Positions 12,501-13,803 of a stretch of 32,990 nucleotides of DNA are shown piece after piece; the first letter of the stretch is position 1, and each line of letters opens with the position of its first letter. This DNA comes from an uncultured Phycisphaeraceae bacterium. Its GTDB lineage: Bacteria > Planctomycetota > Phycisphaerae > Phycisphaerales > UBA1924. The position numbers and the translations under genes were made by a program. Location of the stretch: assembly GCA_964611775.1 (NCBI GenBank), contig CAZTEE010000001.1:1-32990 (forward strand), read 5' to 3'. A model generated the notes under the pieces. The model ran no database searches. It was given only the letters and a program-made list of their open reading frames with translations, and was not told the origin of the DNA.

Positions 12501-13803
12501 ACGCTCCCGCCGTCTCATGCCGGAGTTGCCCGCACGCGGCGGCTATGTCGCGCCCGCGGCTGGCGCGGATGTGGGCCGACACGCCCGCGTCGCGGAGGAT
12601 CGTCTGGAACTCGCGCACGTCATCATCACGAGGGCGTTCGAACGGCAGGCCCGCGACCTCGTTGTAGCGGATCAGGTTCACGTTGCTGCGCATGGACCGC
12701 GCCAGGCGCGCGAGTTCGCGGGCGTGCTCGGGGCGGTCGTTCACGCCTCGCATGAGGGTGTATTCGAGGGTGATCTCGCGTCCGGTCTTCTCGAACCACA
12801 GCCGGCACGCGGCGAGCAGGTCCGCGATCGTGGTGAACTCCGACCACGGGATAAGCGATCGGCGGATGTCGTCGGTCGGCGCGTGCAGCGAGAGCGCGAG
12901 CGTGACGGGAAGATCAAGGTCGCGCGCCAGGCGTTCGATGTATTTCGGCAGGCCGACGGTCGAGACGGTGATCTTGCGGGCGGAGATGTTCATTCCCCAA
13001 GGCGCAGCGATGGTCTCGATCGCGCGCTTTACGTTGTCGAAGTTCGCCAACGGCTCGCCCATGCCCATGAAAACAACGTTGGTTATACGCCCGACGCCCG
13101 TCAGGCGAGAAAGGCGCCATACCTGCTCGACGATTCGGCCGGCTGAGAGGTTTCCGTCCAGGCCGCCCAGTCCCGACGCGCAGAATCGGCAACCCACCGG
13201 GCATCCGACCTGCGACGAGATGCACGCCGTCCTGCGGGGATCCGCGGGGATCATCACGCACTCGGACTGCCGCGAGGTGTCAGCGGCGGTTTGTTGAATC
13301 AGCGATGTTTGCAATATCGGTAATATAAGAGAAGCTTGCCCGTCACTCGATCCCGCAAGCCCGGCTCGAGCTAAGCGAAGGTCAGGATTCGGCTCTTCTG
13401 AGTATCGATTGATTGAGAGATTTTCACGCACCGGCGGGACGCCCATGCCACCGGGGTCGGGGTGGCACGGCTCTCCGAGCCGTGATCGCACGGGCGGGGC
13501 GCCGTTGCCGTTGTTTAATCGGGGTTTGCTAGCGTCGTTCCACTGGATGAGTAGTTTCTGCACACCGTCGGTTGCGGACTGGTGGGCGAGCGTCTCGCCG
13601 GTGAGGAACGCGAGTTCCCGGCGGACAGTCTCGCGGTCATGACGGCTGAGGTTGGACATCTCGGCGGGGTCGGCGACGCCGTGGGCGTAGATCCATTCGA
13701 GGATCTGATCGGCGCGGAACCCGGCCATCCCGCGCTCGGCGACGAAGGCGCGGAGCGATTCAGGCGTCATGCCGAAAACGTGATTGTCCGGGTTGGTGAG
13801 CAT
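12499..13803 (-). CDS. rlmN: 23S rRNA/tRNA (adenine-C2)-methyltransferase RlmN (radical SAM), carrying a ~90-codon insertion
   Basis: Derived from ORF 12499..14046, trimmed to the ATG at 13803. The radical-SAM cluster motif is [17 protein letters not shown]. Downstream motifs are [41 protein letters not shown] and AACGQL. The N-terminal domain shows [11 protein letters not shown]. See findings for the insert at about 13264-13533. Confidence 0.92.
   Translation of the reverse strand: [434 protein letters not shown]
13428..13509. repeat. three REP units (types A and B) located inside the rlmN reading frame
   Basis: 13428-13450 reads CACCGGCG-GGA-CGCCCATG, a degenerate type A. 13466-13484 reads CACGGCTC-TCC-GAGCCGTG, an intact type B. 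13489-13509 reads CACGGGCG-GGG-CGCCGTTG, a degenerate type A. Compare 3400-3420, 3497-3518 and 21473-21491. Confidence 0.7.

Follow-up and report, generated by a model that had tools for sequence, protein, structure and literature searches.

The rlmN gene lies in a 32,990-nt stretch of contig CAZTEE010000001.1 (assembly GCA_964611775.1) from an uncultured Phycisphaeraceae bacterium (Phycisphaerales, UBA1924); this whole stretch is hereafter the window. The gene encodes the radical S-adenosylmethionine (SAM) RNA-modification enzyme RlmN, and a long extra segment between its N-terminal domain and core carries three repetitive extragenic palindromic (REP) units in frame. The evidence makes it probable that capture of a REP cluster took place in a dispensable, disordered surface loop of RlmN before the window strain separated from a sister strain and that the cluster has been carried since as a nearly neutral passenger. 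The insert itself is most likely functionless. A first-pass annotation of the same DNA had proposed that intergenic-type REP DNA sits in frame in a permissive rlmN linker and persists as coding sequence, and the present analysis supports that prediction.

REP units in the rlmN gene

The palindrome family of the window is described by the 25-nt REP-A consensus GTGGCACGGGCGTCYCGCCCGTGCG, with the general form GTGG-CACGGGCG-TCY-CGCCCGTG-CG. The sequence GCACGGGCGTCTCGCCCGTGC with up to 3 mismatches gave 7 matches at six loci in the window compared with 0.02 expected by chance. Two of these belong to the palindrome at 3400, which is matched on either strand, and another is 13428-13448 inside rlmN. 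GGAGAGCCGTGCCAC occurs exactly at 3507 and 13462. The GGTGGCACGG head with no more than 1 mismatch gave 12 matches versus 4.3 expected, 9 of which are REP heads. The units have stems of 8-9 bp, and the intergenic copies have folding energies of -15 to -18.7 kcal/mol with z-scores of -2.3 to -3.2. Like REPs as a class (20-40 nt), they are short imperfect palindromes with a stem-loop and carry a GTAG-type tetranucleotide head, for which GTRG and GTGG variants are allowed. Units are paired or clustered in opposite orientation, both in the rlmN block and at 3341-3625, where they lie on both strands. By these sequence features the family is a GTAG-type REP with a GTGG head. About 12 units are found at 4 sites in the 33-kb window, and three of the sites are intergenic. 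At the two sites whose flanking genes were annotated, the REPs directly follow the 3' ends of a macB/ftsX-like gene and fliM, respectively. A Pfam scan of 11 window proteins, RlmN included, detected no Y1 transposase of the REP-associated tyrosine transposase (RAYT) type.

The segment singled out by the first-pass annotation (13264-13533) was compared with the rest of the window by blastn. All matches with E <0.01 fell inside 13429-13484. Weaker REP-type matches widened the repeat block to 13423-13503, and the targets of both the strong and the weak matches were the intergenic clusters at 3340-3625 and 21434-21500. Only ~85 nt (13423-13512) of the 270-nt segment match repeats elsewhere in the window. 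The annotation had suggested looking for other copies of the segment; within the window the REP part has them, and blastn found no second copy of the non-REP parts. Its statement that the segment holds three REP units of an otherwise intergenic family is borne out by the 21-mer, 15-mer and blastn matches.

On the coding strand, the block is ordered A forward, B inverted and A forward, and its ~27-29 codons (13423-13512) specify Gly/Pro/Arg-rich peptides. Unit B has a 26-nt match with 96% identity to 3498-3523 and an 8-bp hairpin of -13 kcal/mol (z = -3.1). The hairpins of both A units in rlmN are degenerate (z ~0). RNA folding of the whole REP block gave -50 kcal/mol with z = -1.66, which is no better than shuffled sequence. 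The decayed A-unit hairpins and the near-random fold of the block argue against selection on RNA structure.

The minus-strand open reading frame (ORF) that contains rlmN (12499-14046) is open throughout, as the first-pass annotation had stated for the segment. None of the six frames of the REP-A consensus contains a stop codon; whether an ORF stays open therefore depends only on insertion length, and the open frame is weak evidence when taken alone.

The RlmN loop in the window and its relatives

The window rlmN apparently encodes a functional RlmN. The predicted protein scored 335 bits against TIGR00048 (cut-off 290), and Pfam located RlmN_N at residues 10-60 and Radical_SAM at residues 196-363. 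The catalytic and cluster cysteine positions of RlmN are represented by C194, C201/C205/C208 and C424, all of which are present and do not vary across an alignment of 88 sequences. The equivalog score, both domains, the CX3CX2C motif and the two mechanistic cysteines assign the protein to RlmN. The AlphaFold model (predicted template modelling score, pTM, 0.80) has the RlmN fold, with template modelling scores (TM-scores) of 0.85-0.90 normalised to 3rfa and 6fz6. The gene-caller version of the protein (P0001) has 441 aa, which would fit an in-frame TTG at 13824 located seven codons upstream of the ATG. A homologous-protein search with full-length window RlmN returned 7989 matches. The same search with residues 1-178 or 1-148 returned none, which is a word-index effect and not a biological one.

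Alignment with E. coli RlmN (3rf9) pairs query residue 87 with residue 98 and query residue 178 with residue 102. This leaves ~88 extra residues, in agreement with the ~90 extra codons that the first-pass annotation had placed between the protein's N-terminal domain and its core. That annotation had also proposed a structure model as a check, and the AlphaFold model returned a disordered loop. Residues 98-168, which lie between confidently modelled strands (residues 82-88 and 179-187), have a predicted local distance difference test (pLDDT) score <50 and lack secondary structure. Apart from this loop, the model can be superposed on E. coli RlmN and on 6fz6. The flanking strands are part of the beta-sheet extension, which in RlmN and Cfr connects the N-terminal domain with the radical-SAM domain (PMC13001441).

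HMMER was used to compare the 92-aa loop with 1.84 billion representative proteins. Only two matches were returned, both spurious, one to a low-complexity ORF and the other to an immunoglobulin-like repeat protein; the loop therefore does not constitute a conserved domain. A scan of Joint Genome Institute (JGI) metagenomes with the 18-mer ATTACCGATATTGCAAAC from the loop tail, which the window has in common with sister-strain contig L001, returned 55 loci, all of them chance matches. The best of these (L131) has 45% GC and no RlmN. An intein, an intron and translational bypass were each rejected as the identity of the insert. No Hint/intein Pfam domain was found, and an Rfam scan of the whole window gave nothing at gathering thresholds, introns included. 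The insert is modelled as disordered and its length is insufficient, and all relatives keep an uninterrupted frame even though their loop sequences are unrelated. Known mini-inteins are longer than the 92-aa insert.

The distance between DGxxK and SSQ was measured in RlmN homologues. It is 31 aa in ~20 loci of other bacteria and in two Tepidisphaerales loci, 32-37 aa in two Isosphaeraceae loci, and 49-117 aa in Phycisphaerales. The earlier statement that this linker is just a few residues long in homologues thus holds for most bacteria but not for Phycisphaerales. Two variable sites were recognized. Site 1 lies between W-x-D and RQTECVMIP, and site 2 lies between IP and R-x-TAC. Site 1 is 16-82 aa long in 87 relatives versus 89 aa in the window, whose lineage has an expanded loop of ~90 residues. 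Its length is 33-81 aa in the nearest relatives and mostly 16-35 aa in more distant ones. With the loop columns removed, these nearest relatives are 86% (P0002), 85% (P0005), 83% (P0003 and P0006) and 80% (P0004) identical to window RlmN. Nearly all Phycisphaerales RlmN proteins have the tail sLP(I/V)L...D(P/T)sRQTE, and L161, R178, Q179 and T180 are ≥90% conserved in the 88 sequences. Positions 13264-13335 of the window align with this order-wide tail; therefore, the 3' quarter of the "insert" is ancestral. The first-pass annotation had placed the landing in an otherwise short linker, a picture that does not hold because a variable loop is already present here in all Phycisphaerales RlmN proteins.

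Motifs within subclades were also observed in the loop. One subclade has PTGLASRLR(I/V)xGQP(V/I)LGVV, four other proteins share SLRHSVTPSLPQTE, and several have GT(K/E)ARR-type low-complexity runs (homologues P0019, P0020, P0027, P0080, P0081, P0083, P0092, P0109, P0113 and P0117). Parts of the "hypervariable" loop are therefore conserved inside subclades. When 14 Phycisphaerales loops were compared by blast with up to 20 kb of their own flanks, a REP match was obtained in locus L085 alone, and a repeat origin of the other loops is therefore not demonstrated. The REP in locus L086 was found by the consensus scan only and not by this self-comparison.

A sister strain is represented by contigs L001 and L002 from two separate Logan samples, with ~90% nucleotide identity to the window. 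Both contigs begin with a perfect REP (AGTGGCACGGGCGTCTCGCCCGTGCGTG) at the site and in the frame of window unit A, where it encodes SGTGVSPVRD, and this sister-strain copy forms a perfect hairpin of -18.7 kcal/mol. The contig ends at this position fit a multi-copy repeat that breaks short-k assemblies. After the REP, 63 codons are colinear with the window with 0 indels, running through the AT-rich filler and the conserved tail and then into the core. The filler (13336-13422) is shared by no other relative. The synonymous rate (dS) between the window and L001 is 0.34 in the loop and 0.33 in the core. For the ratio of nonsynonymous to synonymous rates (dN/dS), the 63 loop codons gave 0.53 and the 253 core codons 0.016, which indicates relaxed selection on the loop.

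The REP-A consensus was used to scan 25 rlmN genes. None of 32,370 core positions reached 19/25 matches, and the loop scores (of 25) were 23 in the window, 21 in L083, 19-21 in L085 and 22 in L086. The decayed site-1 REP of L083 (P0002) encodes SGAGVLPGR in the same frame as the window, and that of L085 (P0006) encodes VVEQASRPSC in a different frame. The site-1 REPs of the window, L083 and L085 agree in orientation and site; their positions within the loop differ. L086 (P0089) has a near-perfect, inverted REP-A at 4854-4874 in site 2, between IP and RKTAC, that encodes HGRDARAA. The closest homologues of the L086 protein have non-REP inserts of 8-12 aa at site 2. In L085, an intact type-B REP (CACGGCTCGGAGAGCCGTG) at 4497-4520 lies in the 3' end of the P0006 rlmN ORF, within a ~45-aa C-terminal extension. 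At least three independent REP captures are thus seen in Phycisphaerales rlmN: at site 1 in the window clade, inverted at site 2 in L086 and in the C-terminal tail in L085. The site-1 capture is not recent because it is older than the split from the ~90% identical strain. A recent landing is contradicted by the REP common to that strain and by the decayed copies in relatives 83-86% identical outside the loop.

Composition and origin of the insert

Downstream of the REP block, the non-REP linker has a GC content at third codon positions (GC3) of 0.46 versus 0.84-0.85 in the rest of rlmN. An index like the codon adaptation index (CAI) was 0.28 for residues 128-180, whereas 283 reference windows from 7 genes averaged 0.69 and had 0.43 as their lowest value. 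The codon TTA occurs 0 times in the reference gene set and 3 times in the linker. The rare A/T-ending codons noticed in the first-pass annotation are confirmed by this index, which lies below the reference minimum. The annotation had also called the segment low-GC, which is correct for the non-REP flanks (GC 0.50-0.52) but not for the REP block (GC 0.79). The intergenic GC of the window is ~0.51-0.53.

A plausible course of events starts with REP DNA that would have entered the loop via REP/RAYT-type mobilisation or illegitimate recombination. The insertion would have been tolerated because the REP consensus is stop-free in every frame and the loop is structurally dispensable. Near-neutral drift would have followed, with the open frame into the essential core as the sole visible constraint.

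Several observations weigh against capture of a REP cluster as a neutral passenger. The dN/dS of 0.5 is not 1 and no indel occurs in 63 codons, so there may be constraint beyond keeping the frame. The independent assemblies cover the 3' side only, and the 5' junction (13456-13539) lies outside them. Other Phycisphaerales loops keep their GC3 near core GC3. REP insertion alone does not account for the AT-rich filler (13336-13422 and 13513-13539) or for the A/T-ending codons used in the tail. Either spacer DNA entered together with the REPs or the loop drifted to the neutral composition of the genome.

The first-pass annotation had interpreted the whole ~270 nt (13264-13533) as one low-GC element resembling a miniature inverted-repeat transposable element (MITE), which carried the REPs, was bracketed by a direct repeat and inserted into a linker. 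Such an element would produce flanks outside the REPs that are intergenic-like in composition (GC3 ~0.46), codon usage outside the range of the 283 reference windows and the lack of this composition in other Phycisphaerales loops, all of which would fit REPs and spacer DNA inserting together. The imperfect direct repeat said to bracket the segment is present (9/10 match) but is at chance level (P = 0.22 versus shuffles and 0.60 versus other window positions), and a target-site duplication was rejected. Nothing outside 13423-13503 matches the REP clusters of the window or the 1.84 billion representative proteins, the 3' 24 codons align with the order-wide sLPiL...DpsRQTE tail, and each relative already has a 16-82-aa loop. 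A MITE was rejected on the lack of a target-site duplication, the lack of a second copy of the non-REP parts in the window and the ancestral origin of the 3' part. With only ~85 nt of repeat in the segment, insertion as a single mobile unit is unlikely. Still less probable is an enlarged loop that, REP part included, is a functional module under selection, either for binding RNA or a partner or through REP hairpins that modulate translation or mRNA stability. The presence of the loop in all Phycisphaerales RlmN with its conserved LP(I/V)L motif and DpsRQTE end, the intermediate dN/dS with 0 indels and the perfect -18.7 kcal/mol hairpin of the sister strain agree with such a role, and REPs in general influence mRNA fate (PMC3733652). 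However, most relatives lack the REP part, L083 has it in decayed form, and in L085 it is both decayed and in another frame. The A-unit hairpins of the window are lost (z ~0) and the block fold is unexceptional (z = -1.66). Loop length and sequence are almost wholly different among relatives that are 83-86% identical outside the loop, and the loop is modelled as disordered.

A repeat-induced misjoin or collapse at the REP cluster that created or distorted the insert is very improbable. REPs are multi-copy, the two sister-strain Logan contigs break exactly at the REP, and the 5' junction is outside the independent assemblies, all of which such an error would lead one to expect. Against it, two independent samples both contain the 3' side (REP-A, filler and tail). 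The N-terminal domain must adjoin the core, which is the order in all homologues, and the reading frame runs through without a break. Being degenerate or just 25 nt long, below typical assembly k-mers, the REP units of the window should not confuse an assembler.

Neutral capture of a REP cluster in a pre-existing loop remains the preferred explanation. A broader version is possible but doubtful, namely that the variable sites of Phycisphaerales RlmN are recurrent landing pads at which REP, and perhaps spacer, DNA is repeatedly captured and converted to disordered protein, with the filler as a young example. Were this true, much of the order-wide hypervariability of the loop would descend from decayed non-coding repeats, and the filler would have yet to gain a coding-type composition.

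Relation to known repeats and genomic context

Di Nocera et al. 2013 (BMC Genomics 14:522, PMC3733652) defined the GTAG and CGTC REP superfamilies, which include Planctomycetes-Verrucomicrobia-Chlamydiae families. Intragenic REPs are catalogued in the same paper, with most cases in Opitutus terrae, for which a GTGG variant of the GTAG head is described. Additional file 3 of PMC3733652 lists dozens of in-frame O. terrae REPs with the label GTAG-19 in helicases, uvrA, dnaE2 and many other genes. Their peptides include GTGVPPV, GTGVSPV, HGRDARAT, WHGRLARV, VARASRP, TGGTPVP and GMGVPPM. Clusters encode up to 82 aa, and the inserts were proposed to be neutral because of their position in flexible linkers or loops (PMC3733652). 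Five of the six frames of the window REP-A consensus give peptides that correspond to the GTAG-19 list; therefore, the DNA core is essentially the same as in O. terrae GTAG-19. The first-pass annotation knew of no such description for this repeat family, and the listing of in-frame O. terrae REPs with corresponding peptides overturns that statement. The terms 'rlmN' and 'radical SAM' had no match in the supplementary files of PMC3733652.

The window units resemble O. terrae GTAG-19 in their palindrome core, in their organization as short units that often form dimers or clusters encoding 20-30 aa or more, and in their in-frame location within genes of known function. They differ in that the host belongs to Phycisphaerales (Planctomycetota) and is not a verrucomicrobium. 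In addition, the window REPs occupy an already hypervariable, order-specific loop beside AT-rich filler and were inherited jointly with a sister strain. What is new here is the host gene and the lineage for in-frame GTAG-type REPs; the phenomenon has been known since 2013, and no new mechanism is introduced.

The first-pass annotation had chosen the Rickettsia palindromic elements (RPEs) as its analogy, which is appropriate for in-frame palindromes in intact genes. As RPEs are summarized in PMC3733652 (citing Ogata et al. 2000), they too are in-frame palindromes that leave the gene functional and whose extra peptide is tolerated. The insertion in rlmN is in frame in an intact gene with an undisturbed fold, as judged by the open ORF, the retained cysteines, the core dN/dS of 0.016 and the modelled disorder of the loop. 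The sequence families are not those of RPEs. The window units are 25-30-nt GC-rich GTGG REPs whose translations match GTAG-19 and not the Rickettsia repeats. Judged from that summary, RPE-1 elements are longer single elements, whereas the window insert consists of three 25-30-nt units, and the RPE sequence family is unrelated and belongs to an AT-rich obligate intracellular bacterium. According to the same source, RPEs occur in many genes of one genome; here, intragenic copies were found in rlmN only among ~80 genes across related loci. The arrangement also resembles bacterial interspersed mosaic element (BIME) and REP doublet (REPIN) clusters as outlined there (Bertels and Rainey 2011 via PMC3733652), in that the B and A units stand head to head across 8 nt. 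The same opposite-orientation arrangement is found in the intergenic REP clusters of the window. In that outline BIME and REPIN clusters are extragenic by definition, whereas the rlmN units are intragenic.

The locus would be a clean, datable case in which a conserved RNA-modification enzyme has gained translated sequence from non-coding repeat DNA. A natural comparison series is available, consisting of a perfect REP in the sister strain, a partly decayed one in the window, strongly decayed ones in distant relatives and independent captures at two other rlmN positions. For annotators and assemblers it is a warning that rlmN of the window clade holds REPs where contigs break. The beta-sheet-extension loop of RlmN tolerates up to ~90 extra residues and could serve for tagging RlmN or Cfr-type enzymes. 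The coordinates of the REP sites and of the parts of rlmN are collected in Table 1.

Table 1. Coordinates of rlmN, its subdivisions and the REP sites of the window
Feature	Coordinates	Strand	Remarks
rlmN CDS (coding sequence)	12499..13803	-	434 aa; ATG at 13803 taken as start
N-terminal domain and first strands of beta-sheet extension (aa 1-88)	13540..13803	-	contains RlmN_N (aa 10-60); modelled strands aa 69-76 and 82-88; normal codon usage; GC3 0.84
Hypervariable loop (aa 89-180)	13264..13539	-	between two strands of beta-sheet extension; modelled disordered
REP unit A', degenerate	13487..13512	-	~20/26 consensus positions; translated (N)GNGAPPVR; hairpin z = 0.04
REP unit B, intact, inverted relative to A units	13460..13484	+	GTGG head on + strand; coding-strand translation SRLGEPCHP
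REP unit A with shared GTGAA tail	13423..13451	-	23/25 positions match GTGGCACGGGCGTCYCGCCCGTGCG; translated to 10 aa
AT-rich rare-codon filler, 29 aa	13336..13422	-	GC3 0.45; CAI-like index 0.30; common to L001 only
Conserved tail of lineage-wide loop, 24 aa	13264..13335	-	pattern sLPiL...DpsRQT-E; A/T-ending codons; GC3 0.50
beta'3 strand, radical-SAM core and C-terminus (aa 181-434)	12502..13263	-	strong purifying selection (dN/dS 0.016 versus L001); GC3 0.85
Intergenic REP cluster, A and B units, both orientations	3341..3625	.	between rsmB-like gene 1749-3272 and 3' end of macB/ftsX-like gene 3639-5342
Two intergenic REP-A units	21434..21500	-	just 3' of fliM (21507-22535), upstream of dinB-like gene
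Intergenic REP-A unit and partial second head	976..1020	-	consensus match

The interval between the rlmN stop and the next gene differs between the strains. In L001, positions 951-1629 comprise ~680 nt of lower-GC DNA versus ~65 nt in the window (12438-12502). No gene was called and no REP match was found in this DNA, which could be an insertion specific to the strain or a small gene that escaped calling. In the window, rlmN is convergent with a plus-strand gene (11745-12437) for a 230-aa protein that has no Pfam match and a PEP-CTERM-like C-terminal sorting signal (VPTPMAAGLGLAGLGMLVSRRRR). A GC-rich hairpin between A and T runs (aaaaaacccaccgaatgggtgggatttt) at ~12465-12497 separates the two genes and looks like a bidirectional intrinsic terminator. 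On the other side of rlmN, the plus-strand gene at 13975-15453 encodes an FG-GAP/VCBS repeat protein with a dockerin-like C-terminal duplication (15310-15367 and 15391-15448), and this gene accounts for the direct-repeat families D1, D2 and D8 of the window. An FG-GAP protein gene also adjoins rlmN in L083.

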